From the NCBI GenBank assembly GCA_039815185.1, contig JBCBZT010000036.1, positions 23,916 to 87,915 of the forward strand: DNA of 64,000 bases, read 5' to 3'. This DNA comes from Cyanobacteria bacterium P01_A01_bin.123. Lineage in GTDB: Bacteria; Cyanobacteriota; Cyanobacteriia; Phormidesmidales; Phormidesmidaceae. The notes beneath the pieces are model-generated. The model saw only the letters and a program-made list of their open reading frames with translations, made no database searches and was not told the origin of the DNA. Shown here piece after piece: positions 29,873 to 47,787 of the stretch (position 1 is the stretch's first letter; every line of letters starts with the position of its first letter). The translations under genes and the position numbers were made by a program.

Positions 29873-31627
29873 TTATTCCAGGCCGGGATCGCTATTTTTG
29901 GCAGGAATAAATCCAGCTTTGAACCCTCTGTTGGGATTGCGGAGTCGGACATCCAAATTGTTTGGCGAACAGGGAATCGGGGCATCCCAGCACTGTCCTC
30001 TTCTGTCATTGATGGGTTTCACATAGGCAATATCAAAGGACTGTTGGGGTTCTACTGCTGTCGTTGGCATCATGGGTGGGAGTAACCAGCGCTCTCGAAG
30101 ATTGGTACTCGTCAAATAAATTGCACCTAAAATTCCGAGCCCAAACCAAAAGATTTTGAGTCTACGGTTAGTTGGGAGTCGAGGGAAAGATGGCTGCAAT
30201 CGCCACTGAACTACTTTTTGAGCGCAAGGGATGCCTAAAATCGCGATCGCGATCGTGGGAATTAGGGTGAAATATCCCAAGCCAAAGCGAATCATAGGTG
30301 CCTGGAAAAGAATGAATACCATACCGATCAAGCCCAGGCAAAATAGCCAGGGGGTGCCAAGGATGCCCTGGCGTCGAGCGGCCTTGTAGGTAAACCCTGT
30401 GAGGGCAACCGATAGGATGAGTAGTAGCAACATAATGACATTCAAGCGGGCAAACTTGAGCCATTCCCAAAGTCGCCACAGCAGGGCGTTGGTTCCGGAT
30501 GGGGGAGATCCTAGGGCATGCTCCCAAAGCTGGACGACTTTAGCGGCCTCGCTGGCAGTGGTTTCAGAAACACGCCAGGGTAGGTCGATGCATAATGCTG
30601 AAGAGGGGTAGAGCGGACAGCCAGAATGGATAATCCCTGCAGCCGTAAAGGGGACTAAAAGCAAGATGGATAGCCCGCCACCGACAAGCAACCGCCGAAG
30701 GTTTTGAGGCTGTTGCCCCCAGTAAAATAACCCCGCAATGGGTAAAAGTGGCAGTGCTGATAACTTAATGGAGATGGCTCCAACAGCCAGTATTAAGGGG
30801 ATTAATGATGCATCCCAAAGGGGCTTGTGAAAAGGCACAGAATTAGCATTACCCTGTCTGGGTAGGGCAGGGTTAGCAACGGTCAAAATGCTCCAGGCGA
30901 CGGCAACTGTAAGAAAGATGACCGGGATATCGGGTGAAGACGATATTAATATGGCTGATAGAAATGTCGTGAGGGTGATTGCAGGCAAAATTAGAACGGA
31001 TGCAATCACGATAAATTTATCGGTGACTCTGGCACGTCCTGACATCCATCTGTGCAAGGCAATTAGCCCGTGCCCAGTTGCAACTAGTAGGATGAACCCG
31101 TTAGTCACGACACTGGTTTGAGAGGCGATCGCTGCGGGGTTAAACGGGGCTGCTAGGGCAAACCAAGTTGAGGTGAATCCAAAATTGCTCAATATTAATG
31201 CTAAACCAGGTACAGTCCCGAATTCTGAAAGCCACCGAATGGCGCCATAGTGATACAACCCGGTATCGAACCAATTGTTGCGTTGGCTGGTGTAGGCCGC
31301 GATCAAAATTCCCCATCCGATTAACCCGAATAGAACGGGGCGTGATATTGTCTGCCGAATTTTACGAAATTCTACCCGCATGGGTGGCCACATCAGCAGC
31401 AGTAGCAATGCTAAGGCAATGCCCAGACCTACCATCGGCGATAGGGGCAGCGCGATTGCAATCAACAGTAATCCTTGGGAGAGCAATACCGTGCCAAGCC
31501 ATAGCGCTACCATGACGCGATCGCCCACACGGTCAAAACAGTCTGCGTTTAACCCTTGGATCAACGCGGTGCCCACAATCCAAGCTAACGTAGCCAGTAT
31601 GCTCCATGCAGCAATGAAATAAAGCAT
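29873..31627 (-). CDS. polytopic membrane protein (LIC_10190-like, possible GT-C)
   Basis: FDTGLYH, VPGLA, SSSPD, SGCPLYP, C-terminal CWDAPIPC. Confidence 0.7.
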   Translation of the reverse strand: MLYFIAAWSILATLAWIVGTALIQGLNADCFDRVGDRVMVALWLGTVLLSQGLLLIAIALPLSPMVGLGIALALLLLLMWPPMRVEFRKIRQTISRPVLFGLIGWGILIAAYTSQRNNWFDTGLYHYGAIRWLSEFGTVPGLALILSNFGFTSTWFALAAPFNPAAIASQTSVVTNGFILLVATGHGLIALHRWMSGRARVTDKFIVIASVLILPAITLTTFLSAILISSSPDIPVIFLTVAVAWSILTVANPALPRQGNANSVPFHKPLWDASLIPLILAVGAISIKLSALPLLPIAGLFYWGQQPQNLRRLLVGGGLSILLLVPFTAAGIIHSGCPLYPSSALCIDLPWRVSETTASEAAKVVQLWEHALGSPPSGTNALLWRLWEWLKFARLNVIMLLLLILSVALTGFTYKAARRQGILGTPWLFCLGLIGMVFILFQAPMIRFGLGYFTLIPTIAIAILGIPCAQKVVQWRLQPSFPRLPTNRRLKIFWFGLGILGAIYLTSTNLRERWLLPPMMPTTAVEPQQSFDIAYVKPINDRRGQCWDAPIPCSPNNLDVRLRNPNRGFKAGFIPAKNSDPGLE

Positions 31628-31883
31628 CGCCGGTTTTCCTCTTTTCCAAACGTTGTGTTTGTCGCAGGATGTAACTCCATCCACTGACTTGAAGCTACTC
31701 TGTTGGAGTCGTCAAGGACTTAGCACAGCCCCACGGAGGAATCACTCCCTCTAACTTAGTCCTAAAGTTGGGACTATTGGGACTATATTGTTTTGGCCAG
31801 GGCAGCCTCATTATATTTTGATGCAGCATCAACGCGGAAGTAGACATTGCAGGGCTTTAATGCCAGGGTTTCAATGGCTTTGA

Positions 31884-31931
31884 TCTGACAACCCTGCCCC
31901 CAGATCAAATCTGGGGGGCAGGGTTGTCAGA
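31884..31931. repeat. long hairpin downstream of eno
   Basis: TCTGACAACCCTGCCCCCAGAT-CAA-ATCTGGGGGGCAGGGTTGTCAGA, a 22-bp stem with one bulge. Confidence 0.8.
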
Positions 31932-32061
31932 AGAATTTCTAGCGTGGGGACTTTACGGTTGGGGTAGGGATGGGAGTCTTCTCACCCCTACCAACCTGTG
32001 CCAAGAATTCCTTTGTTTGCTTGAAACGACACAGTTACAGCGGGAGCGGCGGCGTTAACCC

Positions 32062-33402
<1,341 letters not shown>

Positions 33403-33476
33403 TTACCACCCCTAACTTACCGATCGCTTTGCCCAGTTCCTTAGAACCGCAGACAATTTAAATCTTTCCGGGGAAA

Positions 33477-33580
33477 TATGGCGCTGGCCAGATTGCTTAA
33501 TGCACCGGGTAGCACTGGGATACTCAGCACACAGGCAATCTGGGTCGCTGTAACCACAAAGCTTTGTGGTTACAGCGATA
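33477..33580 (-). repeat. ~105 bp structured dispersed repeat, copy 1 (inverted relative to the others)
   Basis: GGCCAGATTGCTTAATGCACC...GCAATCTGG and the palindrome GTAACCACAAAGCTTTGTGGTTAC. Confidence 0.85.
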
Positions 33581-33646
33581 TCCCAACACGCGCTTTTAAG
33601 ATTTTGCTCCACAATAGAAGAGTTGCTCCCCAATGAACACAAGCTT

Positions 33647-34084
33647 ATGCGACTACTGCACACCATGCTGCGGGTGAAAAACCTAGAAGAGTCTTTGCAG
33701 TTTTACTGCGATGTCTTGGGTATGAAACTCCTGCGCCAAAAGGACTACCCCGGTGGCGAGTTTACCCTGGCCTTTGTGGGTTATGGCGACGAAGCCGACC
33801 ATAGCGTGCTAGAGCTGACCTACAACTGGGGCAAAGACGAGTACGACCTAGGGGACGCCTATGGCCACATTGCCCTCGGGGTTGATGACATCTACGGTAC
33901 CTGTGCTCAAATTCGCCTGAAGGGCGGCAAAGTGGTGCGAGAACCCGGCCCGATGAAGCACGGCTCGACGGTGATTGCCTTTGTAGAAGATCCCAATGGG
34001 TACAAGGTGGAGTTGATCCAACTCAGCACCCGAGGCTCGGCTCAGGCTCAATCTTCCAGTCAATCTGAACCCGTGGCGGGATAA
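33647..34084 (+). CDS. gloA: lactoylglutathione lyase (glyoxalase I)
   Basis: [40 protein letters not shown]. Confidence 0.96.
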
Positions 34085-34094
34085 CGGAGGAACT

Positions 34095-34859
34095 ATGCAT
34101 CTCATCTTGCCCAAACCCTACCGTAGCGGTCTCACTGCGCTTGCCAGCCTCGTCTTGATAGTCAGCCTAGGCTGTTCGCCCACCCCCCCTGAACCCGATC
34201 AACCCACTGACCCTGAGCCCCAGGCCGCAGTACCCGACGAAGCGGCTCAAGTTGATGCTCAAGCTGAGTGGGATGCTCAACAGCAACACATTGCCTCAGT
34301 GATTGAGACGAAGGATCGGGCTGAGCTGATTGGGAATTCACCGACCAAGGGCTCGCCGGATGCTGAGATCGTGCTGTTTAAATTTTCTGATTTTGAATGC
34401 CCTTACTGCGCGATCGCCTCGGGAGACATGAAAACCTTCATGGACGGTCGCGAAGATGTGCTTTACGTGTATAAGCACTTCCCGCTGAATCGCATTCACC
34501 CAGAGGCGACCCCTGCAGCTAGGGCAGCTTGGGCGGCTCAGCAGCAAGACCAGTTTTGGCTTTATCATGACGGGTTGTTTGCTTACCAAGCGCGTTTGGG
34601 CGAAGACCTATACATAGAACTTGCCGAAGAAATTGGGTTGGATGTTGAGCAATTCAATCGCGATCGCAATAGTGAAGCTGCTGCTGCCGCTGTCGAAAGC
34701 GACCTAAAGTTAGCGGAAGAACTGGAACTCAGGGGGACTCCGGCGTTCTTGATCAACGATTTGCTGGTTCCCGGTGGTGCGCCGCTAGAGTTCTTTGAAG
34801 AGGCCGTGATCAGAATTCAAGAACATAACGAAGCGCAGTCCAGTCAGGCGGATAGCTAG
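34095..34859 (+). CDS. DsbA-family thioredoxin-fold lipoprotein
   Basis: FSDFECPYC, YKHFPL, GTPAF; lipobox-like SLGC. Confidence 0.9.
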   Translation: MHLILPKPYRSGLTALASLVLIVSLGCSPTPPEPDQPTDPEPQAAVPDEAAQVDAQAEWDAQQQHIASVIETKDRAELIGNSPTKGSPDAEIVLFKFSDFECPYCAIASGDMKTFMDGREDVLYVYKHFPLNRIHPEATPAARAAWAAQQQDQFWLYHDGLFAYQARLGEDLYIELAEEIGLDVEQFNRDRNSEAAAAAVESDLKLAEELELRGTPAFLINDLLVPGGAPLEFFEEAVIRIQEHNEAQSSQADS

Positions 34860-35236
34860 GTTGTGTGGCAAGAGGGTATTGCCTGCCGAATCGACGGCTC
34901 GATACAGGTACCTGTTGCTCTTTTTAATTTTGATGTAGGTTTCATCCACTCGCCCGAATCATTGCTGGATCTGGCTTGCCGTAGCGCACAAAGCTTTGTG
35001 GCTACGGCAAGCCAGATTGCTTGGGTGTTGGGCATCCCAGGGATACTAGGTGCATTAAGCAATCTGGCCAGTGCTATAGATACCGACGGTAACGCTGATC
35101 CAGTAACGGGCTACAAGCCTGCACCCAGCGATAGATTGTCGTGTGGCCAAACTCAATCCCGCACTCGACCATCATCGCTTCTAAATCTCAGTAGCTCAAG
35201 CCATAACCATCTACACTCTGTTTTTGCAACAGAGCC
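34859..35236. mobile_element. IS6-family remnant
   Basis: Ends GGTTGTGTGGCAA and TTGCAACAGAGCC (IS6-type inverted repeats). Minus strand ~34872-34952 encodes RVDETYIKIKKSNRYLYRAVDSAGNTL. Confidence 0.75.
34969..35078 (+). repeat. ~105 bp structured dispersed repeat, copy 2, inside the IS6 remnant
   Basis: GTAGCGCACAAAGCTTTGTGGCTAC...GCCAGATTGC...GGTGCATTAAGCAATCTGGCCAGTGCTATA. Confidence 0.85.
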
Positions 35237-35470
35237 CTTTTGAAGACCTCAGACGCGAATGGCAGAATCGTATGCCTTCATGATCGCAGAGAGCGATTTA
35301 TGAAGACCGTTGAGGAACTGGAAGCCTGATTCCAGTCTGCTTAAACAGAAATAGGGAGAGGGGCGATCGCGAATGACGAGCAAGTGAAATTTGACTACTC
35401 AATTCTGACAAATTCCGCTCTGCTGGTCCATCACGTGATATTCCTACACTAGAGTGCCTTGAGAGTGAAC

Positions 35471-36919
35471 ATGATAATAGACCATGAACCCCTTACCCTT
35501 GTTTGGATTGTCCTGCCCTTGTTTGTGGGGTTCAGCATTTATCTTTTGCCCAAATTGGATCGCGTTCTGGCAGTCACCATTTCCTTGATTTCGTTGGGCT
35601 ACGGGTTATGGTATGTACTCAATCCGGCACCTATAACTTTACAACTATTAGATAGCTATGGCGTCAGCTTGCTCATCGACGGCCTGAGCGGTTTCTTTAT
35701 TTTGACCAATGCCATCGTAACCCTGGCGGTCATTCTTTACTGTTGGCAGAGTGGAAAAGAAGCTTTCTTCTACACCCAAGCCATCATTTTGCATGGCAGC
35801 GTTAATGCAGTATTTGTTAGTGCAGATTTGATCAGCGTCTATGTTGCTCTAGAAGTCATCAGTATTGCCGCATTTTTGCTAATCGCCTACCCTCGCACTG
35901 ACCGTTCCATTTGGGTAGGGCTGCGTTATTTATTTGTGAGTAATACAGCCATGCTGTTTTACCTGATGGGGGCAGTGTTGGTCTATCAAGCCAGCAATTC
36001 GTTTGCCTTTACGGGAATATCACAGGCTCCAGCAGAGGCTATTGCATTCATTTTTGTCGGCCTTTTGGCCAAAGGCGGGATCTTTGTTTCAGGGCTATGG
36101 CTGCCCCTGACCCATTCTGAATCGGAAACACCGATATCCGCTTTACTGTCAGGCGTTGTTGTCAAAGCAGGTGTCTTTCCGCTCGTCCGGTTTGCACTCA
36201 TGGTGCCTGAGATTGACTCTATCGTTCGCATCTTTGGTGTGGCAACCGCGCTTTTAGGTGTCAGCTACGCCGTATTTTCTAAAGATGCCAAGCGCATACT
36301 CGCATTTCACACGGTTTCTCAGCTCGGGTTTATCTTGGCGGCACCGGCTGTAGGCGGCTTTTATGCGCTCACCCACGGCCTGGTGAAATCGGCCCTTTTT
36401 CTGATTGTCGGCAACTTACCGAGTCGCAACATCAAAGTGCTGAAAGAAAATCCCATACCCATCTCTCTTTGGATCACGCTGGCGATCGCGAGTTTTTCGA
36501 TCTCGGGCTTTCCACTCCTGGCGGGATTTGGCGCTAAAGTACTCACCTCAAAGAATCTAGTCCCCTGGCAAGTGATCGGCATGAATATCGCCGCATTAGG
36601 AACAGCCATCTCATTTGCTAAGTTTATTTTTCTGCCCCATACTCTAGAGCGCTCTGCATATACTGTGAAAAAGGGCTTTTGGCCAGCTGTGGTGCTGTTA
36701 CTGAGCGGATTGGTTCTGGCGAATGGCTTTTACTATGAAGCCTATAGCTTGCAAAACAGTGTTAAACCGCTCATTACTATTGCAGCCGGTTGGCTGGCGT
36801 ATTTACTGATCTTCCAAAAGTTATCGATTAAATTACCACGTGCGGCTGAGCAGTTTGACCATTTGATCGGTGCCATGAGCCTAATGTTAACTTTCCTTTT
36901 TTGGATGGTGCTTGCATAG
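35471..36919 (+). CDS. mrpD: Mrp-type Na+/H+ antiporter subunit D (orphan)
   Basis: DLISVYVALE, WLPLTHSESETP, SGVVVKAG, KRILAFHTVSQLG, THGLVKSALF. Confidence 0.85.
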   Translation: MIIDHEPLTLVWIVLPLFVGFSIYLLPKLDRVLAVTISLISLGYGLWYVLNPAPITLQLLDSYGVSLLIDGLSGFFILTNAIVTLAVILYCWQSGKEAFFYTQAIILHGSVNAVFVSADLISVYVALEVISIAAFLLIAYPRTDRSIWVGLRYLFVSNTAMLFYLMGAVLVYQASNSFAFTGISQAPAEAIAFIFVGLLAKGGIFVSGLWLPLTHSESETPISALLSGVVVKAGVFPLVRFALMVPEIDSIVRIFGVATALLGVSYAVFSKDAKRILAFHTVSQLGFILAAPAVGGFYALTHGLVKSALFLIVGNLPSRNIKVLKENPIPISLWITLAIASFSISGFPLLAGFGAKVLTSKNLVPWQVIGMNIAALGTAISFAKFIFLPHTLERSAYTVKKGFWPAVVLLLSGLVLANGFYYEAYSLQNSVKPLITIAAGWLAYLLIFQKLSIKLPRAAEQFDHLIGAMSLMLTFLFWMVLA

Positions 36920-36957
36920 ATTGGCTATCGAGACTTGCTGTTGCGGTTGGCGATCGC
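36920..36957 (+). pseudogene. N-terminal stub of mrpE
   Basis: IGYRDLLLRLAI directly after mrpD resembles cyanobacterial MrpE starts. Start codon damaged (GCATAGATT); ends at HIP1 36950-36957. Confidence 0.5.
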
Positions 36958-36958
36958 A

Positions 36959-37034
36959 CTGGTTCCCGGTGGTGCGCCGCTAGAGTTCTTCAAAGAAACC
37001 ATTGTTCGTATCAAAGCCTATAAGAAGCGCAGTC
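36959..37034 (+). repeat. degenerate second copy of the dsbA-like gene 3' end
   Basis: 36959-36990 is identical over 32 nt to 34764-34795. It continues as diverged KETIVRIKAY...EAQS versus EEAVIRIQEHNEAQS. Confidence 0.85.
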
Positions 37035-37075
37035 TGAATAACGGACGTTTAGTGCGATTGTTCGCTTTGTAGGAT

Positions 37076-37175
37076 GCATTGCGACAAATCAATCCGTTAA
37101 CTAGGAATACGCGTTTTGGGTTGGTATTGCAATTATATTCACCACAATCTGGTGCGGCATGGGTTGTGCAAAGGT
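37076..37175 (+). pseudogene. RAYT transposase relic, copy 2
   Basis: Translates SIR*LGIRVLGWYCNYIHHNLVRHGLCK. Homologous to 12663-12765. Confidence 0.55.
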
Positions 37176-37321
37176 TTAAGGACATGGTCATATATCAGCT
37201 TTCAGTGATTTATTAGCGATGGTGTCTATCTGCCAGATTAGGAGTAAGGGTAGAACCGAAAAAGCCTGCGGGGTTTTGGGATATTTGACTTGATGCATCG
37301 CGACACGTTCTACGCGATGAA

Positions 37322-37364
37322 GCGATCGCGCTTGATCCAGTAATTTTCGGGGTTGAGGGTTCAT
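37322..37364 (-). pseudogene. N-terminal stub of an integron integrase (IntI)
   Basis: MNPQPRKLLDQAR matches the IntI start pattern P(K/R)KLLDQVR. Divergent from the cassette gene; breaks at HIP1 37322-37329. Confidence 0.6.
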
Positions 37365-37473
37365 AGGTGGTAGATGCAGCACATGATCCTAACTTTGACA
37401 TGCATAAATTGAGACCTACGGATAAACCTGGGTGACTATACTGTGACACCTTCAATATATCTACTCAATGTCG

Positions 37474-37491
37474 ATCCGATAAGAGTTAAAC
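37474..37491 (+). other. candidate attI core site
   Basis: ATCCGATAAGA-GTTAAAC (GTTRRRY at 37485-37491), between the IntI stub and the RT gene. Confidence 0.35.
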
Positions 37492-37605
37492 CTCTTGGCC
37501 TGAGCGTTATTGGCAACTCCTGCACATCAAATTCGTTAGCATACGTGCAACATTCAATACAAGAGGCTATGATCGTGGGCAATTTTGAAGGCTTCCTCAC
37601 AGAAC

Positions 37606-39996
37606 ATGTTAACCAGGAATGAGCTTTGGGATAAATTCGCAAATTATGAAAATTTTCTATTGGCTTGGCAAAGAACCGTAAATGTCACCAGCCGAATGGT
37701 TCATGAAAAGCTAGGAATGGAAATATTTGCATATAATCTCCAATCTAATCTTGAAGATTTGGTGCAGCAGGTCAAATCAGAAGATTTCCCTTACTCGCCT
37801 CTTGCTGATCACAAAGTTTACCTCCCAAAGCCATCGACTACTCTACGCACTATGTCATTGATGGCTGTTCCAGATGTAATTGTGTATCAAGCACTAGTTA
37901 ATGTGATTGCTGATCACTCTCATTTTCACCTTGTAAGTCATGAAAATGAACACGTTTTAGGAAACCTTTATGCAGGAACCGGAAGGCGTTGGATGCTACA
38001 GCCATGGAAGCGCCAATATTCCAGGTTTGTAAAGCGCGTTGAGAAGTTATACGGCATTGGGAATTCTTGGATTGCCTCAACAGATATAGTGGCTTTTTAT
38101 GACACTATTGATCATGAGAGACTATTGAGTCTAATTCGACAATATTGTGGCAAAGAAGATAAGTTTGAGAGCCTTTTTCGCCAATGTTTGTCCAAGTGGT
38201 CAGCACATAATGCAACTTCTACTATGGGTCGAGGTATCCCACAAGGTAGCAATGCATCTGACTTCCTTGCCAATCTATATTTACATGGAATAGATTGTAA
38301 GCTTATCTCTAGCGGATACCATTACATTCGATATGTTGATGATGTCAGAATTCTTGGGCCAGATAAATCAACTGTTCAGCGTGGTCTTATATTATTTGAT
38401 CTTGAACTAAAGTGTGCTGGATTGGTAGCCCAAGTTTCAAAAACAAGCGTTCATGAAATTGAAGATATAGAGAAAGAAGTTTCGCGGCTCAGATTTATAA
38501 TCACCGATCCAACTGGTACAGGTGAATATATTCTTCTTGAGACGCCTTCTCTACCTACTAGTGAGCAGGCTGGATCAGTCGAAAGCTTGGTAGAAAACAC
38601 ACCAAGTGAGCAAACAGAGTTTGAACAAAACGAATCGTGTAAAGATTGCCCTGATGAAGAGGAGGAAGGCTATGTTCCAGATCAAAATATTGATATACAT
38701 GAATACAAATCTAAAAAACTTCAGGAACAATTACGCAATAAATTCTTAGAGGCATTTAACTTATTAAACGATCTCGCCCGAGCTAAAGAAGCTGAGTCTC
38801 ACATAACCTTTTGTTTATATCGACTTGAACCTCATATCACACTACGCAGCCAAGCAATTACCTTACTATCTAGGTTGCCTTGGCGATCTGAAGCGATATC
38901 AGCTTTCTTAGGGCGATTTAAGAGTGATTCTTTTGTCATAGAGGAGTTAAGAAAATTTATATCTGAGCATACAGTTTATTCTTGGCATCGTGCCAATACT
39001 CTTTGGACGCTATACAAAACAAGTGCAGCTAAGGATGTCGCACCTCAATGCAGGGAATGGTTGGCTAATGATCAACTTGATTGGTATGCAAGAACAATTG
39101 CAGCAAGAATATTAGCAGAAGTTCCGAGTCAACACTCCTACCTAGTTGAATGCTTAAAAAAAGAGCAGAACAACACAAATGAAGATGGTGAGGCAACTTC
39201 TGTACTCCGTCAGGAATTAGCTTACAGTGCTTTTCGAAGAATAAAATCGTTTAAGAAACAATTAGCATTACTACAACTTATTTGTTCAGATAAAAGCCCT
39301 ATACTTCATCGACTAGCCATTTATATTCTTCAACAGCCTAAGTGCAAAGTAAAGTGGAACGATCTCAAATCTTATCATAATAACTTAAGTATACTATCAG
39401 GTTTGATTGAGAAATTAGGCATATCAGATGATGTATCAAAGCCTTGCTTTATAGCTGAGACTATAACAAGAACATATCAAATTTATTTGCCTAAGACTGA
39501 TCTTCGATTTCTCTATTCAAATCACTATGATAAGGCCATTGAAACTCTACGAGAATCCGTAATCTCTTTCCAAAAATCTCCTAGTTTATATGTGAGAAGC
39601 TTTCACCAATTTACACACACAACACTAATTGCATTTTATGAATATGCCCTTCCTTCAGAAGGAGGGATACGGACTTCGTATTACCACGATCTTATTCACA
39701 GAAAAGTATTTAAGGAAAAATGCCCGATTAGTGTGAGTACGTGGGAGAGGCTAAATGAGATGAGAAACCTTGTTGATCACCCGATAGACAAGAAAACTCA
39801 ATCTCATTCCAAAAAAATTACCGTCCAAGAAATTGAGTTTTTGCATAAACAAATTAAGGTGGCTCTTCAAGAACTCTTTGATTTTTGGTTGAGTATAAAG
39901 GTGCCGAAAAGCGATACAGCGACTTCAGATGCTATATTGACATCAGTTGAAGTCAGTACTGAAATAATTGAAGCTACCGTAACTACTGTATCCTAG
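37606..39996 (+). CDS. UG/Abi-type reverse transcriptase with helical-repeat region and C-terminal HEPN-like motif
   Basis: LPKP..TLR, TDIVAFYDTIDH, GIPQGSNASDFLANLYL, YIRYVDD (38332-38343). Acidic linker, helical middle region, RNLVDH (39763-39780). AT-rich; no HIP1 site seen. Confidence 0.9.
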   Translation: MLTRNELWDKFANYENFLLAWQRTVNVTSRMVHEKLGMEIFAYNLQSNLEDLVQQVKSEDFPYSPLADHKVYLPKPSTTLRTMSLMAVPDVIVYQALVNVIADHSHFHLVSHENEHVLGNLYAGTGRRWMLQPWKRQYSRFVKRVEKLYGIGNSWIASTDIVAFYDTIDHERLLSLIRQYCGKEDKFESLFRQCLSKWSAHNATSTMGRGIPQGSNASDFLANLYLHGIDCKLISSGYHYIRYVDDVRILGPDKSTVQRGLILFDLELKCAGLVAQVSKTSVHEIEDIEKEVSRLRFIITDPTGTGEYILLETPSLPTSEQAGSVESLVENTPSEQTEFEQNESCKDCPDEEEEGYVPDQNIDIHEYKSKKLQEQLRNKFLEAFNLLNDLARAKEAESHITFCLYRLEPHITLRSQAITLLSRLPWRSEAISAFLGRFKSDSFVIEELRKFISEHTVYSWHRANTLWTLYKTSAAKDVAPQCREWLANDQLDWYARTIAARILAEVPSQHSYLVECLKKEQNNTNEDGEATSVLRQELAYSAFRRIKSFKKQLALLQLICSDKSPILHRLAIYILQQPKCKVKWNDLKSYHNNLSILSGLIEKLGISDDVSKPCFIAETITRTYQIYLPKTDLRFLYSNHYDKAIETLRESVISFQKSPSLYVRSFHQFTHTTLIAFYEYALPSEGGIRTSYYHDLIHRKVFKEKCPISVSTWERLNEMRNLVDHPIDKKTQSHSKKITVQEIEFLHKQIKVALQELFDFWLSIKVPKSDTATSDAILTSVEVSTEIIEATVTTVS

Positions 39997-40006
39997 TCAT
40001 GATGAA

Positions 40007-40092
40007 GTCTAATAATTCGCTTGGAGCACATTAACAGAAGCTCCTAGTGTATTGCGGTGGCTGTCTACAGCTGCTCGAGCAAATCGTTAGGT
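40007..40092 (+). mobile_element. integron attC-like site closing the RT cassette
   Basis: GTCTAAT-AATTCGCTTGGAGC ... GCTCGAGCAAATC-GTTAGGT; an imperfect inverted repeat with one extra base in the left arm. 86 bp, starting 10 nt after the RT stop. Confidence 0.72.
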
Positions 40093-40174
40093 AGTAGTGG
40101 ATCTTCCCTTCCAAATCTTTAATTATACTTTCTGATGACGGGAAACTTCCTGTAGTGCGATCGCTTCTAGTGCA

Positions 40175-41617
40175 CTAAGGGGCAAACAGCTTCTCTAACT
40201 GCTTTTGCACCCAGGCGACCGGATTCGTATCGTAATCATTGTTGATCAACCCAAGCTCTCGCAGGCGGCGATTTTGCTGGGTGAGTTCTTTTTCGTGGCG
40301 ACCCATTTCTTTCACGATCAAATCATAAAGGCGGGGCTGGCTTTTTAAAATCTGATTGAAGCCTTGGGGCGTGATCGCAAATACAGTCGTTTCTTCGACG
40401 GCTTCGATAGTGACTGTGCGGGGAATACCGAGCATCAACGAGAATTCACCCACGAACTGTCCTGCTTTGAGCACCGTGGGGGGGTGCTCGGCGTCATCGA
40501 TGGTATAGCTCACCGCGCCGGTCAAAATGATATAAAACGCATCACCGGGATCTCCCTTCTTAAACAGCACTTCACCCTTGCTCAAACGTCTGCGATAGCC
40601 AATTTCCACCAGCTTCCGCAACTCCACTGTGCTGCATTTTTCAATGTAAGGAATCTGACGCAGCAAATCTCTGACGGCGACAGGTTTGGGGTAGGTTTCA
40701 TTGAAGGTTTGAGTCTCCCGATGCATCTGGATATGGCGTTCATAATCTGCCGGAGAGGACTGGACCACCAAATTAGGGTTGCGGTGCCAAACGTCATAGC
40801 GGGGTGACGCCAGTCGAATGCGGTGCTGCCTCAGGTTTTGATCGATGATGAACCGTAAAGAACTTTCGGTTTTGTGCTTCAGATCAATGTGATTGATCCA
40901 AATCCACAGCACAAAGTCTAAAGAGTTTTCGCCAAAACCCGTGAAATAAACTTCTGGCGGATATTCGTAAGAGACGGTTGCTTCTAAATATGCCGAATCG
41001 AGTAGCGCCTCAATCACCACCACAGGATCGCTTTCGTGGGCAACGCTAACGTAGACAGGCACCCAGCCTTTGGTGTTGTGATAAGTCCAGTTGATCACAT
41101 GGGTGCCCACAAGGCTGCTGTTGGGGATGACGATATGCCGTTTGGTAATGGTCTGAATCACCGTAGAACGCAGGGAAATTTCGGCAATGTATCCCGAGAG
41201 CCCTTCCCACTCTACAAAATCGCCCACTTTAAGCTTTTGTTCGACCAATATGGCGATGCCGCTGGTGAAGTTGCGAGTCAGATCTTGCAAGCCAAAGCCA
41301 ATGCCAATGCCCAAGCTACCCACCAAGACGGCAATAGAGGCAAGGTTGATGCCTAGGGCTTGCAGCAATATGATGCAAACCATCATCCCTGCCCCGTAGC
41401 TGGTAATCGTGGCAATCGATTCACGGGTACCTTGCTTAAATCCTAAGCGTCCTAAAATCTGGTTCGATAGTAGACGCTTAAAACCTAGGGAAAACAGCAG
41501 CGCCATCAGCAGGGCGAGCATAAACTGCGCGATCGCGCTCAGGGTCAAAGCTGAGCCACCAATGTTGAGAAATGGCGTGTCCAGCACTTGCTGAAGCGTC
41601 TCTAGAAAATTGCCCAT
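40175..41617 (-). CDS. MscS mechanosensitive channel with C-terminal cyclic-nucleotide-binding domain
   Basis: GIGIGFGLQD, KVGDFVE, IPNS; C-terminal GDPGDAFYIILTG, VGEFSL, PRTVT. Confidence 0.92.
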   Translation of the reverse strand: MGNFLETLQQVLDTPFLNIGGSALTLSAIAQFMLALLMALLFSLGFKRLLSNQILGRLGFKQGTRESIATITSYGAGMMVCIILLQALGINLASIAVLVGSLGIGIGFGLQDLTRNFTSGIAILVEQKLKVGDFVEWEGLSGYIAEISLRSTVIQTITKRHIVIPNSSLVGTHVINWTYHNTKGWVPVYVSVAHESDPVVVIEALLDSAYLEATVSYEYPPEVYFTGFGENSLDFVLWIWINHIDLKHKTESSLRFIIDQNLRQHRIRLASPRYDVWHRNPNLVVQSSPADYERHIQMHRETQTFNETYPKPVAVRDLLRQIPYIEKCSTVELRKLVEIGYRRRLSKGEVLFKKGDPGDAFYIILTGAVSYTIDDAEHPPTVLKAGQFVGEFSLMLGIPRTVTIEAVEETTVFAITPQGFNQILKSQPRLYDLIVKEMGRHEKELTQQNRRLRELGLINNDYDTNPVAWVQKQLEKLFAP

Positions 41618-41917
41618 CGACTCAAAGACCGCGATTACTTTTCCAAGGGAATTATGACAGGCAGGTTGTGCCGACGGGGGGCAGGGGTAAAACGGTTACC
41701 CCTGCAGATCGGCTTGAAGAACGACCCCAAAGATCCAGCTAGCCTCTCTCAATGGTCAGTTGTGAAAATGTTAGATTCGAAGCAATGGGTTTTGAGCCAG
41801 GTTGTAGTGGGGGTGGCTGCGGCGGGGGTGGCTGCGGTGAGGGATAGGCAGGTTGTTCTCAGAGCATGAAAACCAGGATGGATGGCAATTTTTTTACCTT
41901 AATACCGATCTAGATCT

Positions 41918-42763
41918 ATGCAGAAATCTGGTTGGGATGCCCGCCGTCGAAATCGCAATATGGGTACTGCCAAGTCTGGTCATGGCCAAGACAAGCGGCT
42001 CACTATCCCAGAGTCATGGGCCGACAACCGTCGCTTTTACGAAAGGCTCCACAACCCAGTTGCACTAGCACGTGAAATCAACGGACATAGACTTACGTTT
42101 CTGATCGAAGCGACGCACGCTGATTTTTGTCATGCCTGCACCCCCCAAGATATTGAACGGGTGCTTGAGCTGATACCACTGGATCATCTCGCGCCGATCA
42201 GACTGATTGTGTTGAGACAGCCGAAGCGTAAAGAACTTATCCTCAATCCGGTTTGGGGGAGGCTCCAGTATTGGGCTGATATGGGGCCATACTCAGGGCC
42301 TGCGATCCACCTCGAAGCACAGCCTGTCAATGCCACCTATCGATGGCCCAAGTCGCTAACCCCAGATCAGGCACTTGAATTGAACCGTCTCGAACAAGAG
42401 GGGCACCAGATTCGCAGCGATCGCCGATATCATCACATCACGAGCAACTTCGAAGCCCTGCGGTATACCCAGCTTTATCGCACCACCCCCCATGAGATTG
42501 GCCACTATGTCGATTATTTGGAAAGCGTGACGATCCCCGCAGGCGAAGATGTAGTTGAACGGCAGCAGTTAGACAATCGGTATGCGTCTAAACCCACGAA
42601 AGATAAAGAAGACTTCGCCAACCGCTACGCAACTGAGTTCCTGACACAGCAAGTCCAAAGAGGCCGTTTACCGTTCGATCGATTATTGGATCGTAAACAA
42701 CTGAAAAAGGCTGGGCTTGATCCTGCATGGTTTAGTCATCCTCATGCGGTTGATCCGCTTTAA
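41918..42763 (+). CDS. hypothetical protein with an HEIGH (zincin-like) motif
   Basis: 281 aa ORF; HEIGHYVD followed by EDFANRYA. Confidence 0.7.
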   Translation: MQKSGWDARRRNRNMGTAKSGHGQDKRLTIPESWADNRRFYERLHNPVALAREINGHRLTFLIEATHADFCHACTPQDIERVLELIPLDHLAPIRLIVLRQPKRKELILNPVWGRLQYWADMGPYSGPAIHLEAQPVNATYRWPKSLTPDQALELNRLEQEGHQIRSDRRYHHITSNFEALRYTQLYRTTPHEIGHYVDYLESVTIPAGEDVVERQQLDNRYASKPTKDKEDFANRYATEFLTQQVQRGRLPFDRLLDRKQLKKAGLDPAWFSHPHAVDPL

Positions 42764-43514
42764 GCATTGCCATCCAGGTCATGTCATCCTGACTCAATGA
42801 AGGATTAGGGGGTTGTGCATAATCAATCGCTAAATCTAGAGCTGCCTCGGCATAAATTTGGTTTAGGAGGGCAGCTAAATCAATCACAGGTTCAGGGTCA
42901 CTTGACCTCAACGGTAATGGAAAGCGAGGGATCGCTTCCCTTAAGTCAAACGGATAGCGAGCTGCTGTTGGACGGTCGCGGACACAACTGACCAAGATTT
43001 GATAATCAGACTTCCGTCCTCCTTCTACTGGCATTGGTTTCCCGGTTCTGAGCAAATCAATTTCAACCAGATGAGTCGGACTCGATAAGATGCTTTGCCG
43101 TTTCTCCAAATATTGAGTACGACCTTCCCCAGCACGTTTGTTCTTGGGGGAAAGCAGCTCAACAACTGTAACAACTCGGTTTGTTTCCACTTCCCGAATT
43201 TCTAAGTAGCGTTCAGTAATTTCTTCGGTCATCGGCACGCTAACACGCTCTGGTTTGCTCAATACAGCAGTCCGTTGAGCAGCCTCAACCCTAACTGTGG
43301 GTCTTTTTTCAAATACTGATGTATCTGGGATACCGACCAAAATGGCATCCAAGTAAACCCTTTTTTCCACCGCAGCTCGATATTTAGGGGTTATTTCCAG
43401 ATTCAGCGTTCTCATCAGAGCACCGATTAGCCCGTAGTGAACCTCTGGCCACAGAGCAGGGTTTTCGAGATATGGGTTCATGCCTGGAAAAGCAGGTCGA
43501 TTAGCCATAGTCAT
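42732..43514 (-). CDS. DUF4058 family protein
   Basis: FPGMNPYLE, ELLSPKNK, HLVEIDLLR. Confidence 0.88.
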   Translation of the reverse strand: MTMANRPAFPGMNPYLENPALWPEVHYGLIGALMRTLNLEITPKYRAAVEKRVYLDAILVGIPDTSVFEKRPTVRVEAAQRTAVLSKPERVSVPMTEEITERYLEIREVETNRVVTVVELLSPKNKRAGEGRTQYLEKRQSILSSPTHLVEIDLLRTGKPMPVEGGRKSDYQILVSCVRDRPTAARYPFDLREAIPRFPLPLRSSDPEPVIDLAALLNQIYAEAALDLAIDYAQPPNPSLSQDDMTWMAMLKADQPHEDD

Positions 43515-43659
43515 GCGATCGCGCCTAATACTTGCTCTTATTCTATCGATGCGGCATCCGATGACGTTGTTCAAGCCAAACGCGAATTTCGGTGTCTATT
43601 CTACTCATCCCCTCCACCGTAAGCAGTCTTAATTAGACAAACAAACAGTTGATTGCATT

Positions 43660-43686
43660 GCATCTATCAGGGAAGTTGATAGATGC
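43660..43686. promoter_or_regulatory. LysR-type binding site
   Basis: GCATCTATCA-N7-TGATAGATGC, containing T-N11-A, upstream of the LysR gene. Confidence 0.65.
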
Positions 43687-43738
43687 GATCGTTCATCACC
43701 TGCCACAATGCGGATATTGAAAGTGGGATAGGTTTGCA

Positions 43739-44650
43739 ATGGGGCTTGAACGATCAAACCAGCTTAAACCCGCTCAGCTCCAAGTGTTGCTTACGGTGGC
43801 CGACTGCGGCAGTTTTAGTGAAGCGGCACTACAGCTCCAGCTTTCACAGTCTGCGATTAGCTATACCATTGCCAGCCTCGAAGAAGAACTCGGTGTGGTG
43901 CTGTTTTCCAGGGGACGCTATGGGGCCACGCTAACGCCAATTGGGGCGGAAATTACCGAGCGGGCAAAGCAACTGCTGTATTTGGTCGATGACATCTACC
44001 ACCAAGCCAATTTAGCGAAAGGGTTGCAGGGAGGCCAGATTCGGATTTCCGCCTTTCGCAGCGCGGGCACCCATATCTTGCCTGAGGTGATTGCCCAATA
44101 TTGCCAGCGATACCCCGAGATTGCAGTCCGCATTGCCGAACACGATGACCGTCCTGATGTTGAGGAAGATTTACGTAAAGGTAAGGCCGATGTGGGCATC
44201 ACTTATCTCCCGGCAGCTCGATATTTAGAAATTTGGCCGCTGATGCAGGATGAGTTTGTGATTTTATTTCCACCAGGGTTTGAGCTGGCTGGGGAAAACC
44301 TGACTTGGCAAGAAGTAATGGCTTACCCACTGATCATGGCTCCTGACGGGGACCTCTGCGACGCGATGGTCTATGCCCACTGTGCCAAATACGGCATCGA
44401 TTTAAAGCCGACCTATCACATCCGCTCAGATGCCACCATCGTCAACATGGTGGCCCAGGGGATTGGTGCAGCCATTAGCCCCCGGTTAGCGGCAGAACCG
44501 ATTCCGGCAGGGGTGAAAGTATACAGCTTACCGAAACCAGTCTTTCGTAACATCTGTGTGGCAACGCTGGCGGATGCGCTGCTGTCTCCAGCCGTGTTTG
44601 CGTTTTTGGATTTGCTTAAACAGACGGTGAGCTCAGGCGATAGTGTGTAG
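43739..44650 (+). CDS. LysR family transcriptional regulator
   Basis: GSFSEAALQLQLSQSAISYTIASLEEELGVVLF. Confidence 0.95.
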   Translation: MGLERSNQLKPAQLQVLLTVADCGSFSEAALQLQLSQSAISYTIASLEEELGVVLFSRGRYGATLTPIGAEITERAKQLLYLVDDIYHQANLAKGLQGGQIRISAFRSAGTHILPEVIAQYCQRYPEIAVRIAEHDDRPDVEEDLRKGKADVGITYLPAARYLEIWPLMQDEFVILFPPGFELAGENLTWQEVMAYPLIMAPDGDLCDAMVYAHCAKYGIDLKPTYHIRSDATIVNMVAQGIGAAISPRLAAEPIPAGVKVYSLPKPVFRNICVATLADALLSPAVFAFLDLLKQTVSSGDSV

Positions 44651-44682
44651 TGATTGCTCATGACTATTCTTTAAAATCCAAT

Positions 44683-46227
44683 TCAGCTTGAACCACTACC
44701 CAGTAAAAATAATCCAATCATGGTGACACTATTCCAGGCGCTGTGGAGCATAATCGGGGCGAGTAAGTTACGCGATCGCGTATAGACAAACCCGAGCATT
44801 GCCCCCAGTGTCATCAACGGCAGCACCTCTGACAGGCTGAGGTGGGCGGCGGCAAAGACAAAACTGCTGAGCGCGATCGCGCCCCAAACCGGCATATACC
44901 GCGTTAGCGACGGCAGCAAAAAACCGCGAAATAGAATTTCTTCAAAGATGGGCGCGGCGACTGATGCAGTCAGCAAAAACGCAATCAGCGCCACTGAATC
45001 GCTCTCTTCTAAAACCGTTTGCAACAGCGGATTGCTACCCCCTTGTCCTTGCCAAAACTGTTGGTTGAGCAACGATATGCCAATCATCAGGGGTAGGGCA
45101 CAAAAGTAGCCACCGATGCCCCACAATAGCCAATTGCTACGCCAGCGAAACTGAAACCAACCTTCTGGCAGGGGTAGATAGGGGCGAATCGAGGCGTAGA
45201 TGACACTCACGCCGATGACGGCCATTAGCACGTAGTAGCCCATGGAATATAGCGCCCGCCCCCGACTCCCGAGGGCCGCAATATTTAAACCCAACTGCCC
45301 GAGCAAAAAGGGAAGCAACAGTTGACCCGTGAAGAAGAATCCTAAAATCAATACCTGCCAAATGATTTCCCCTGTCCAAGGCGTTTCCCAACCCTTATTT
45401 TCATTTTGGGCAATCCAGGCGTCTTTGCCCCGCAGCAGACGCTGGGTGATCAGCGTAATCAAAGTGGCCGCGCCCAAGAGACACCCCACCGTGGGTAACA
45501 CACCGACAACAATCACCTTGTACAGGGCGCTTTCAGCAGCATCCTGTTCGGCTGCTTGGAGACGACGTAGGGCACTGGTGCGGTTTTGCAACCCGTAAAG
45601 CTGGGCTAGGGCTTGATTGCGAAACCAGCCGTCCAGATTCGTTTCAATTAACCCTTCCGCACCGTTAGGTAAGCTGGCTGGCTGGCTCCAAAGGCCGCTG
45701 AGGGTGGTGGCAGTTTGGGCGATCGCATCCGTACCGCTACCCGACTGTTGCAGGATGCGCCAGGTTTTCAACGCAGCGTCTGTCTCACCCAGTTCTGCTT
45801 GTAAGAGACCAATCCGCAAATCTAACTGCTGCTGCAAGATCACCTGCTGCTGGATAGCGATCTGGAGTCGATTGGGCCGGGCTAGCGAACTGCCATTACC
45901 CGAATTGTCTAGGGGAGCTTGGGCGATCGCGGTTTCCGCTTTATCGATATTATTGGTAGCGTCTTGGCGCACTGATTGGTACTGGTCTAAGGTCGTTTGT
46001 AAGGGCTCATCCCCCAACAATGCTTGCCGCAACTGCTCGACAGTGGCCGAGTCAACCCCTTCCCCTTGCCACTCGGTTGCCTGCAAGAACAAATCAGCCT
46101 GATAAAGCTGCAGGCGGCTGGTCACCTGGGGCTGTTGCCAACTGCTAATTAAGGAACTCCCGACCGCGAGGGCTACTAACGCCGTCAACACGGTCAAAAT
46201 CAGTCGTCTAAGTACGGTCATACCCAT
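44683..46227 (-). CDS. CPBP (CAAX/Abi) intramembrane metalloprotease
   Basis: APIFEEILFRG, FAAAH, IMLHSAWN. Start is 46227 or 46221. Confidence 0.9.
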   Translation of the reverse strand: MGMTVLRRLILTVLTALVALAVGSSLISSWQQPQVTSRLQLYQADLFLQATEWQGEGVDSATVEQLRQALLGDEPLQTTLDQYQSVRQDATNNIDKAETAIAQAPLDNSGNGSSLARPNRLQIAIQQQVILQQQLDLRIGLLQAELGETDAALKTWRILQQSGSGTDAIAQTATTLSGLWSQPASLPNGAEGLIETNLDGWFRNQALAQLYGLQNRTSALRRLQAAEQDAAESALYKVIVVGVLPTVGCLLGAATLITLITQRLLRGKDAWIAQNENKGWETPWTGEIIWQVLILGFFFTGQLLLPFLLGQLGLNIAALGSRGRALYSMGYYVLMAVIGVSVIYASIRPYLPLPEGWFQFRWRSNWLLWGIGGYFCALPLMIGISLLNQQFWQGQGGSNPLLQTVLEESDSVALIAFLLTASVAAPIFEEILFRGFLLPSLTRYMPVWGAIALSSFVFAAAHLSLSEVLPLMTLGAMLGFVYTRSRNLLAPIMLHSAWNSVTMIGLFLLGSGSS

Positions 46228-46402
46228 TGAAAGAAGGTTTAATCCAAACAGCCATCGTTGCAATAGCGGGGTTTGCCCAGCTCGGCTACTGGGTGCATTA
46301 TCGCATCGTTTCTTAACCAGATTCAGGAAGCAGATTGGGTGTAGGATAGCGCAACCCATCGGGTTAGAATCTGACTGGCTGAGCGACAGAGAGGATAAAC
46401 CC

Positions 46403-47776
46403 CTGAAAACCCGCATTATTCTAGTCCGACATGGTCAAAGCTCCTATAATCTCCAAGGCCGAATTCAAGGCCATTGTGACGAGTCTTCCCTGACTGAGCT
46501 GGGTCAACAGCAAGCTCGCAAAGTCGGTTCTGCTTTGCTGGGCATCAGCTTTGACGCCGTTTACGCCAGCTCGTTGCAGCGGGCTAGTCAAACAGCCGCT
46601 TTAGTGGTTGCAATGCTGCGATCGCAGACACCCAATCTCCCCGATCCCATCTGCCAAGACACCCTCAAAGAAATTAGCCTTCCCCTGTGGGAAGGCTTAT
46701 CTTTTGAAGCGGCAGAGACCAAATATCCTACGGAATACAAAGCTTGGCGACAGCAGCCTGAAGCGTTTTGCATGCAGTTGCCCAAAGATCAGGATTCCGG
46801 AGATGGCGGGACAGAAGCGTTCTATCCCATGCGTGAGCTGTATCAGCGGGCTCAAGAATTTTGGCAAACCCTATTACCTAACCATCCGGGTCAAACGATA
46901 TTGGTGGTGGCCCATAGCGCCATTAACCGCGCCCTGATTAGCGTTGCGCTAGACATTGGCCCCGAAAAGCACAACCAACTCGATCAAGCCAACTGCTGCA
47001 TCAGCGTCCTCAACTTTTCTGGCACGCTGGGAGACAAGGTTCAGATCGAGTCTATGAACCTGACCAGCCATATGGGCCAACCATTGCCACCCATGCGCAA
47101 AACCCACCGGGGGCCCAGGATGTTGCTGGTGCGCCACGGCGAAACCGACTGGAACCGCGACAAACGCTTCCAAGGCCAGCGGGACATCCCCCTCAACGAT
47201 AATGGACGGGCTCAGGGGGCGAAAGCGGCCGAATTTCTCAAAGCCATCCCCATTGATGCCGCCGTCAGCAGCTCCATGCTGCGCCCTAAGGAGACCGCCG
47301 AACTCATTTTGCAACATCACCCTGGCCTTGATCTGCGGCTCGAAGATGGCCTACGGGAAATCGGCCACGGTGAATGGGAAGGCATGCTTGAAGCGGACAT
47401 TGAAGCGGGATATCCTGGCCTGTTGCAACAGTGGCAAGACGCCCCCGAAACGGTGCAAATGCCTGGGGGTGAAAACTTGCAGGAGGTCTGGCAGCGAGCG
47501 ATCGCAGCTTGGAAAGCTATCGTTGCCGCCCACAGCGGCAGCGACACCCCTAAAACTGTATTAGTCACCGCCCACGACGCCGTCAACAAAGCCATTCTTT
47601 GCCACGTGCTGGGGTTCGAGCCCAATCAGTTTTGGACTTTCAAACAGGGTAACGGTGCCGTCAGCGTCATTGACTACCCCGACGGCGTTGGTAGCCCGCC
47701 AGTCCTCAAAGCCATGAATATTACCACCCACCTGACTGCCGGGATTTTTGACCAAACGGCGGCGGGAGCGCTTTAG
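46403..47776 (+). CDS. two-domain histidine phosphatase family protein
   Basis: Two RHG motifs (ILVRHGQS upstream of the track's start, and LLVRHGETDWN). Probable CTG start at 46403 after GAGAGGA. Confidence 0.9.
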   Translation: MKTRIILVRHGQSSYNLQGRIQGHCDESSLTELGQQQARKVGSALLGISFDAVYASSLQRASQTAALVVAMLRSQTPNLPDPICQDTLKEISLPLWEGLSFEAAETKYPTEYKAWRQQPEAFCMQLPKDQDSGDGGTEAFYPMRELYQRAQEFWQTLLPNHPGQTILVVAHSAINRALISVALDIGPEKHNQLDQANCCISVLNFSGTLGDKVQIESMNLTSHMGQPLPPMRKTHRGPRMLLVRHGETDWNRDKRFQGQRDIPLNDNGRAQGAKAAEFLKAIPIDAAVSSSMLRPKETAELILQHHPGLDLRLEDGLREIGHGEWEGMLEADIEAGYPGLLQQWQDAPETVQMPGGENLQEVWQRAIAAWKAIVAAHSGSDTPKTVLVTAHDAVNKAILCHVLGFEPNQFWTFKQGNGAVSVIDYPDGVGSPPVLKAMNITTHLTAGIFDQTAAGAL

Positions 47777-47787
47777 TCGCTGAACCA

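Follow-up and report, generated by a model that had tools for sequence, protein, structure and literature searches.

The stretch of DNA analysed here (64,000 nucleotides, hereafter the window) belongs to Cyanobacteria bacterium P01_A01_bin.123 and covers positions 23916-87915 of contig C2 of this genome (G000; further contigs of the same genome are labelled C24, C36, C68, C131 etc.). Between positions 37322 and 40092 it contains a large reverse transcriptase (RT) gene, which lies between the first codons of an integron integrase gene (intI) with an adjoining attI site on one side and an attC-like element on the other. The initial annotation, made from the letters alone, had placed a divergent stub at 37364-37326, a GTTRRRY site at 37485, the RT gene and an 86-bp element 10 nt past its stop codon, and all of these positions proved correct when the coordinates were checked. 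The locus comprises the following features (window coordinates, with the evidence in brackets):

37322-37329, no strand: HIP1 palindrome GCGATCGC, the point where intI similarity stops, i.e. the truncation point (alignment with C36, C24 and C68; the blastn match to C68 starts at 37322)
37326-37364, minus strand: intI stub, first 13 codons, MNPQPRKLLDQAR, with its ATG at 37364 (comparison with the N-terminus of the genome's own intact IntI)
37435-37463, minus strand: conserved promoter-like block, TAGATA-17-TATAGT, candidate PintI (consensus scan; kept in C36, C24 and C68)
37470-37491, plus strand: attI core remnant, GTCGATCCGATAAGAG followed by TTAAAC, crossover G at 37485 (14 of the 16 nt before the crossover equal the C24 attI core)
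37486-40086, plus strand: gene cassette of 2601 bp (blastn to copy L052, junction views, composition)
37568-37573, plus strand: -10-like hexamer TATGAT in the cassette leader, a possible cassette-internal promoter (conserved in six copies)
37606-39996, plus strand: UG19-large reverse transcriptase gene, 796 aa, or 803 aa from TTG 37585 (PADLOC RT_UG19, Pfam RVT_1, 108 relatives, ratio of nonsynonymous to synonymous substitution rates, dN/dS)
38056-38454, plus strand: RT catalytic core with YVDD (Pfam RVT_1 match, protein residues 158-290)
39499-39894, plus strand: C-terminal HEPN-like domain, with the Rx4H motif RNLVDH at 39763-39780 (AlphaFold2 (AF2) model, fold matches, motif invariance)
40007-40092, plus strand: worn attC, with R'' GTCTAAT at 40007-40013, L'' at 40019-40028, L' at 40072-40080 and R' GTTAGGT at 40086-40092 (covariance models; homology to the L052 attC)

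The genome encodes a full-length integron integrase on contig C36 (476 bits on TIGR02249, curated cut-off 265) and contains IntI fragments on contigs C14, C39, C5 and C24. Contig C2 yields neither a TIGR02249 match, even at E ≤ 10, nor a tblastn match, and only the 13 intI codons at 37364-37326 are left at the locus itself. The translated stub has the same start as the N-terminus of the intact IntI (METRPRKLLDQVR), with 9 of the 13 residues identical, and the DNA from 37322 to 37485 can be aligned with C36, C24 and C68 across the start of intI, the block upstream of it and attI. In a blastn search with window positions 37300-37520 against the own genome, C68 was matched with 79.6% identity over 142 nt (window 37322-37462; E 1e-26). 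The initial annotation had proposed an IntI origin of the stub with the reservation that only about 13 amino acids matched, and had suggested aligning stub and spacer with real intI 5' regions; the shared start, the residue identities and the DNA match to C68 identify the stub as IntI in spite of its length.

Upstream of the stub, the attI cores of the four loci read GTCGATCCGATAAGAG before TTAAAC in the window, GTCGATCTAATAAGAG before TTAGCC in C24, ...CTAATGAGAG before TTGGAC in C68 and ...CTAATAAATAG before TTAGAC in C36. In all four loci similarity ends at the G of GTT and the sequences diverge beyond; in the window the site is GTTAAAC at 37485-37491, directly preceded by CCGATAAGA. A site upstream of intI with its crossover in GTT is thus present at the locus in an internally shortened form, in which about 105-110 bp between the promoter-like block and the core, present in C36, C24 and C68, are gone, the distance from the ATG to the crossover G is 121 bp compared with about 225 bp in C36, and the left box is altered from TCTAAT to TCCGAT. 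As a candidate PintI, the conserved block contains the TAGATA-17-TATAGT pair (minus strand, 37463 to 37435); no Pc promoter was found by a two-hexamer consensus scan of the plus strand from the stub to the RT gene. Similarity to intI stops after codon 13 at GCGATCGC, and C68 is cut at the same codon, also at GCGATCGC. The 400-bp non-coding region between the neighbouring antiporter-like gene and the stub (36920-37322) contains short dispersed repeats, copies of which are 75-84% identical elsewhere on C2 and on C8, C124, C35 and C55, and may be what the deletion of intI left behind.

Relatives of the RT were fetched from five metagenome contigs and 16 genome loci (labelled with L-numbers, e.g. 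L033, L034 and L050-L054); in the scan of genome contigs a single-protein query found no relatives and an alignment query worked. Comparison of window positions 36900-40400 with the close RT copies by blastn gave these homologous intervals:

L052 (88% amino acid identity): window 37485-40090, 87.5% over 2615 nt, an independent metagenome copy
L033: window 37508-39989
L054: window 37525-37796, limited by the contig end
L050: window 37557-40026
L053: window 37560-39898 and 39946-39989
L051: window 37572-40026
L034: window 37624-39894

Homology to L052 covers exactly the interval between the two predicted G/TT crossover points (the slash marking the crossover) and nothing outside it. At the 5' junction, four of the eight copies (the window, L052, L053 and L034) read TTA(G/A)ACC(T/C)C... 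immediately after the G and are preceded by unrelated DNA, and at the 3' junction the window, L052, L053 and L051 each finish in ...CG/TT, with unrelated DNA beyond. One and the same unit bounded by G/TT is thus found in different contexts, and its G+C content in the window (0.33-0.43 across about 37350-40100) differs from that of both flanks (0.44-0.55). Since the cassette occurs in unrelated contexts of other cyanobacterial DNA, it has, as judged from these junctions, moved as a unit in the past.

The RT is often found among cassette-type or mobile genes. In L054, the 3' end of a transposase-like open reading frame (ORF) lies upstream at 1100-1300 and cuts into the leader of the RT cassette, and RelE/HigB-like toxin genes lie near the cassette copy, on its upstream side, in L050 (1-100) and L034 (4300-4620).

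The attC-like element is 86 nt long and begins 10 nt past the RT stop codon. It was assessed with home-made attC models, which differ from those of IntegronFinder and whose E-values are rough owing to a shortened calibration. Seed sites were taken from a motif-plus-structure scan of the own genome and from an integron array on C24. The first covariance model (R1) comprised seven sites, including those of L052 and L053, with the window site left out, and found 25 sites in the own genome; the second (R2) was built from 20 of these sites after realignment, all from the own genome and none from C2 or from any RT-cassette copy. With filters off, R2 gave a single significant match in the 64-kb window, at 40007-40092 on the plus strand (23.3 bits, E 0.0031), the next best reaching 11.5 bits (E 2.1), and R1 identified the same place (27.1 bits, E 5e-4). 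The covariance-model check suggested in the initial annotation thus came out positive with these models. In the 21 RT loci, R2 detected attC sites in L053 (3013-3099, 45.4 bits), L052 (2641-2730, 44.8 bits) and L051 (2931-3017, 35.9 bits), each 10-30 nt after the RT stop codon and on the same strand, and besides these one weak match (E 0.92). The array on C24 follows an attI homologous to that of the window and contains attC sites of 61.9, 21.0 and 72.1 bits, of which the middle one stands between two strong sites; genuine array members can therefore score as low as the window site.

The attC of L052 is of textbook form (GTCTAAC ... GTTAGAC), with R'' and R' fully complementary and a bottom strand that folds at -19.1 kcal/mol (z -5.2), and its cassette-side TTAGAC recreates R' in the circular form. 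Compared with this homologue, the window attC differs in its central stem and L boxes as well as in R'' (AAC to AAT), and the bottom-strand hairpin with paired R and L boxes is absent. Since the L052 homologue folds and the window copy does not, the window site is best described as a worn attC. The initial annotation had spoken of an 86-bp imperfect palindrome; the element and its end boxes are borne out, its quality as a palindrome is not, and an inverted-repeat finder run on 39900-40200 did not report the proposed arms. Furthermore, with one R2 match at E ≤ 1 in the window (filters off), the locus holds fewer than the at least two attC sites within 4 kb by which attC clusters without an integron-integrase (CALIN) are recognised. 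Two simpler scans were discarded: a strict RYYYAAC...GTTRRRY motif search came back empty, also for the real C24 array, since the R' boxes found here read GTTATCT or GTTAGCT, and a very relaxed attC motif search returned noise only. An Rfam search of 30000-48000 at E ≤ 10 found no relevant family, which has no bearing on the attC.

Taken together, the locus at 37322-40092 is interpreted as what is left of an integron platform in the chromosome, with one RT gene cassette in it (probability about 0.85). The platform would consist of 13 intI codons on the minus strand cut at the HIP1 palindrome, followed by the promoter-like block, a shortened attI and the crossover G at 37485, and the 2601-bp cassette (37486-40086) would have been inserted by integrase-mediated attI x attC recombination, a step suggested by the junctions. 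The intI-attI-gene-attC layout proposed in the initial annotation is hence upheld by the homology of stub and spacer to the intI 5'/attI regions of the own genome, by the breakpoints at G/TT and by the attC model matches.

Several observations weigh against this interpretation. In the window, R'' is without the conserved C and complementary to R' at only four of seven positions, and the fold of the bottom strand is not better than that of shuffled sequences (z +0.43 for 111 nt; z -0.45 for the stretch without the first G). On a genome-wide scale the window attC is marginal (R1 E 0.063) and is not among the 43 R2 matches at E ≤ 1; moreover, the R2 seeds were picked with R1, which held two attC sites of RT cassettes, so that the choice of R2 seeds is not fully independent. 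An R2 match accompanies the RT gene in only four of the seven close copies with 3' sequence, with none in L050, L033 and L034, whose 5' parts are replaced or worn, and the genome-specific R2 gave no match in 14 more distant RT loci (50-64% identity). No integron integrase was found within 5 kb of any of the 16 genomic RT loci (the scan returned one weak 31% match to a tyrosine-recombinase C-terminus near the RT of L048). Finally, the locus could not be compared with an empty site. Of 31 genomes, 17 contain MscS orthologues, and in the six regions that were fetched the MscS gene stands without any of the other window neighbours; as synteny with relatives is lost on the MscS side, no empty site could be made out. 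The absence of attC in the distant loci and in L050, L033 and L034, together with the lack of a nearby IntI, means that the cassette form is shown only for the subclade closest to the window. The suggestion that RT homologues are followed by attC is accordingly borne out in L051, L052 and L053 and fails in the other three close copies and the 14 distant loci. In addition, none of the 22 RT loci was matched at E ≤ 0.1 when searched by blastn with the four attI/stub regions, so members of this platform family do not adjoin the other RT copies. Of the three outcomes that the initial annotation had named as speaking against an integron origin, one, the lack of a bottom-strand hairpin, was found, and the attC model match and the alignment of stub and spacer came out in favour.

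The RT gene might have come by a different route, as part of a generic genomic island, a transposon or a phage remnant, with integron-like ends arising by chance. The low G+C island without other mobility genes, the weak palindrome and the location of most RT homologues away from integron features would agree with such an origin, which is nevertheless very improbable, as three other loci, one of them with an intact intI, are homologous to the stub/attI DNA (E 1e-26 for C68), the L052 homology stops exactly at both G/TT points and the attC model matches the predicted place in four copies.

More weight, although it too is unlikely, is given to a platform that is still alive, in which stub, promoter-like block and attI form a maintained solo attI landing pad used in trans by the intact integrase, so that the RT cassette would remain exchangeable. 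The same genome does encode an intact IntI, a second solo module with the same-codon cut exists on C68 with about 80% conservation of start codon, promoter-like block and attI core, scores as low as that of the window attC are also seen in real array members (the 21.0-bit C24 site), and integrases acting on cassettes elsewhere in the genome are discussed in the available text of Cury et al. 2016 (PMC4889954). On the other hand, the window attI lacks the approximately 105-110 bp found in three other loci and has the altered left box (TCTAAT to TCCGAT), the conserved C of R'' is lost and the bottom strand does not fold, and no attC or cassette was found beside the C68 module. Under the preferred interpretation of a decayed platform, the worn features of this copy (R'' with AAT instead of AAC, a cassette-side box TTAAAC instead of TTAGAC, no stable hairpin and a shortened attI) make the cassette probably immobile or poorly mobile now, despite the intact integrase elsewhere in the genome. 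The initial annotation had proposed that the RT was captured as a cassette and became fixed when intI was lost; capture is supported by the junctions and the attC, the loss of intI is local since an intact IntI sits on another contig, and fixation is plausible in view of the shortened attI and the worn attC.

Reverse transcriptase genes inside integrons are classically of the group IIC-attC intron type. An RT belonging to such an intron homing into attC sites, rather than being cassette cargo, is a possibility to which we give next to no credence here: an Rfam search of 30000-48000 gave no match to any group II intron RNA family at a threshold as lenient as E ≤ 10, attI and the unit's own attC form its two boundaries, and the best protein family is UG19 (PADLOC RT_UG19, E 1.3e-155), with helical-repeat and HEPN domains. 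The UG19 profile is matched over its full length (positions 3-561 of 562), the next best profile being UG21 (E 9.9e-66), while AbiA gives E 1.9e-16, and a Pfam search of the whole protein returned RVT_1 only (E 2e-14). The YVDD residues Y243, V244, D245 and D246 are invariant in 20 sequences. The 108 relatives at E ≤ 1e-10 are nearly all cyanobacterial where named, and most start at the ATG that gives 796 aa. Values of dN/dS between 0.10 and 0.19 against six copies indicate that the RT gene is kept by purifying selection.

An AF2 model of the whole protein (predicted local distance difference test score, pLDDT, 73.8) is all-helical past residue 370, and Foldseek matched it to group II RTs, DRT4/UG15 (TMq 0.40-0.41), AbiK, Abi-P2 and AbiA, with long alignments to the last four. 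A separate AF2 model of the last 257 aa (pLDDT 82.8) was compared with representative structures by VIA-align. Its best matches are HEPN folds (2hsb, Z 10.4, root mean square deviation (rmsd) 3.1, 119 aligned residues), the second best being AbiA residues 478-628 (Z 10.1, rmsd 3.3, 126 aligned, 8% sequence identity), followed by sacsin HEPN (Z 9.6), 4nqf (Z 9.2), the HEPN toxin 7ae2 (Z 8.3) and Csm6 (Z 7.2); at a Z of about 10 the arrangement of helices in a bundle can be enough for a match, which weighs against the HEPN assignment. Pfam searches of C-terminal parts gave noise only, and a search of the PDB by sequence matched RT cores and nothing else. The C-terminal region contains an RN-x-V-x-HP motif, whose R, N, V, H and P do not vary among the 17 sequences compared and which fits the Rx4-6H signature that defines HEPN RNases according to the available text of PMC3710099. 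In the portions of Mestre et al. 2022 (PMC9226505) available to us, UG19 is placed among the Class 1 UG/Abi RTs, a class with fused repeat domains, its large form is described as having a C-terminal domain with very distant HEPN likeness, and its role in defence is predicted from individual loci. The window protein shows the corresponding full-length profile match, YxDD core, helical repeats and HEPN-like C-terminus.

The cargo most likely functions as a single-gene phage defence of the abortive-infection type, as suggested by analogy. DNA synthesis by the RT would set in upon infection, possibly without a template and with protein priming, and the HEPN RNase would act as the effector that leads to abortive infection, again by analogy with AbiA and AbiK only. 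AbiA of Lactococcus is an RT fused to a C-terminal HEPN domain and a Class 1 UG/Abi abortive-infection protein (PDB 8oz7; HEPN assignment in the available text of PMC3710099). The window protein shares with it the order of RT, helical region and C-terminal HEPN and a full-length Foldseek match, and differs from it in belonging to another UG/Abi group (PADLOC E 1.9e-16 for AbiA vs 1.3e-155 for UG19) and in a HEPN match of only 8% identity; moreover, UG19 is known here from sequence and models. With UG19-large as described in PMC9226505, in turn, it has in common the full-length hidden Markov model match (3-561 of 562) and the fused C-terminal domain with distant HEPN likeness. Expression probably starts from a promoter inside the cassette leader: the -10-like hexamer, missed by the two-hexamer scan, is conserved as TATGAT, TATAAT, TAAGAT or TACAAT in six copies, which suggests that the RT cassette brings its own promoter. 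A structured RNA in the 120-nt leader was considered and rejected (RNAalifold -1.49 kcal/mol, essentially no covariation).

Integron cassettes that carry anti-phage systems are established (Kieffer et al. 2025, Darracq et al. 2025 and Getz et al. 2025, as named in the available parts of PMC13434031 and of preprints 10.1101/2024.07.02.601719 and 10.64898/2026.03.17.712381); in PMC13434031, 783 systems in 30,000 genomes are cited and antiphage proteins of sedentary integrons are described as tending to be small. As in these systems, the window contains a defence-type gene bounded by attI/attC crossovers, the same cassette occurs in different contexts, and it occupies the first position beside attI. 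In contrast to them, the cassette is found in a cyanobacterium instead of Vibrio or plasmids of enterobacteria, it carries on its 2.6 kb a UG19 RT of 796 aa, compared with the small proteins of PMC13434031, and the platform is decayed. In the available part of the mobile-integron preprint the words 'reverse transcriptase' and 'DRT' do not occur, nor do 'integron' and 'cyanobacteria' in the main text of PMC9226505, the supplements of which were outside our scope. We found no paper that describes a UG19 or other UG/Abi RT as a cyanobacterial integron cassette; the supplements of two 2025 Science papers, likewise outside our scope, may list such cases among the 783 systems. The stockpiling of defence genes by integrons is an idea already known, and what is new here is its extension to a large, uncharacterised RT and to a little-studied lineage. 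The locus is evidence for large RT defence genes being carried from place to place as integron cassettes in cyanobacteria. Furthermore, what is moved in nature is the 2.6-kb cassette together with its own leader, which gives clean boundaries for a UG19-large (RT-repeat-HEPN) single-gene defence candidate.

Cury et al. 2016 (PMC4889954), in the part available, report intI pseudogenes near 15 of 279 CALIN and the presence of integrons in Cyanobacteria. The window locus resembles such CALIN in that a cassette remains after the loss of the integrase, and departs from them in having a single attC (at least two by definition), an attI still recognisable by homology and an intI piece of 13 codons, which is far below the pseudogene rule of that study (more than 50% profile coverage). 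It thus represents a decayed platform that standard rules would miss, given its 13-codon intI, its single worn attC and an attI that can be recognised only against other loci of the same genome. Both intact and decayed integrons are common in the family: 54 of the 101 genomes sampled from it gave IntI matches, 41 of them above the curated cut-off, and many of these genomes contain several truncated or stop-containing IntI fragments, which is why platform decay looks widespread in the lineage, the window locus being one example. The UG19 gene itself, searched for at E ≤ 1e-80, was detected in none of the 100 further genomes sampled from this family.

Within the own genome, the 43 R2 sites at E ≤ 1 are spread over many contigs, several of them in pairs 1-3 kb apart (C19, C40, C46, C21, C24 and C131), which suggests that the genome contains many single cassettes and small cassette clusters without an integrase. 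The initial annotation had regarded an RT of this size as unusual cassette cargo, a view qualified here by a second RT: at C131:48261-49933 (L057 1262-2934), a 524-aa defence-type RT (PADLOC Drt8, E 7e-158) is followed 8 nt past its stop codon by a 61-bit attC, and GG/TTATGC, matching the R'' of this site, lies about 155 nt upstream of its start. The Drt8 gene is probably another RT cassette, and integron cassettes can thus carry large RT genes, two different ones in this genome.

The array on C24 belongs to a decayed integron (C24:15564-19359; L009 2565-6360) with a 71-78-codon intI fragment, whose start codon is now ATA, and attI. Its attC sites (61.9, 21.0 and 72.1 bits) lie between a 1.5-kb cassette containing a 226-aa ORF and an antitoxin/PIN-toxin pair, a GNAT-like 141-aa ORF, a 238-aa ORF and a 114-aa ORF. 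A second integrase-less module on C68 (about 255-545; L010) comprises 13-14 intI codons, the promoter-like block and a full-length attI, with unrelated DNA past the cut and no attC found next to it. The cut that it shares with the window could result from an ancient truncation followed by duplication, or from a deletion hotspot linked to HIP1. As a tentative and rather doubtful extension, we hypothesize that the integron of this lineage could be a distributed system, in which integrase-less pads (13-codon stub, promoter block and attI) cut at the same HIP1 palindrome would lie at several chromosomal sites, one intact integrase would serve them in trans, and large defence cassettes with promoters of their own, e.g. 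those of the UG19 and Drt8 RTs, would shuttle between pads and the many scattered attC sites.

The cassette locus is neighboured on the left by an NDH/Mrp-antiporter-like gene (35459-36919, plus strand) and on the right by a gene for an MscS channel with a cyclic-nucleotide-binding domain (40175-41617, minus strand). The genome furthermore contains short elements of about 66-110 nt bounded at both ends by the palindrome (C/G)AGAAACCGGGTTTCT, e.g. C118:53855-53920, C1:38899-38969 and C53:4118-4423, which look like miniature inverted-repeat transposable elements and unrelated to attC.

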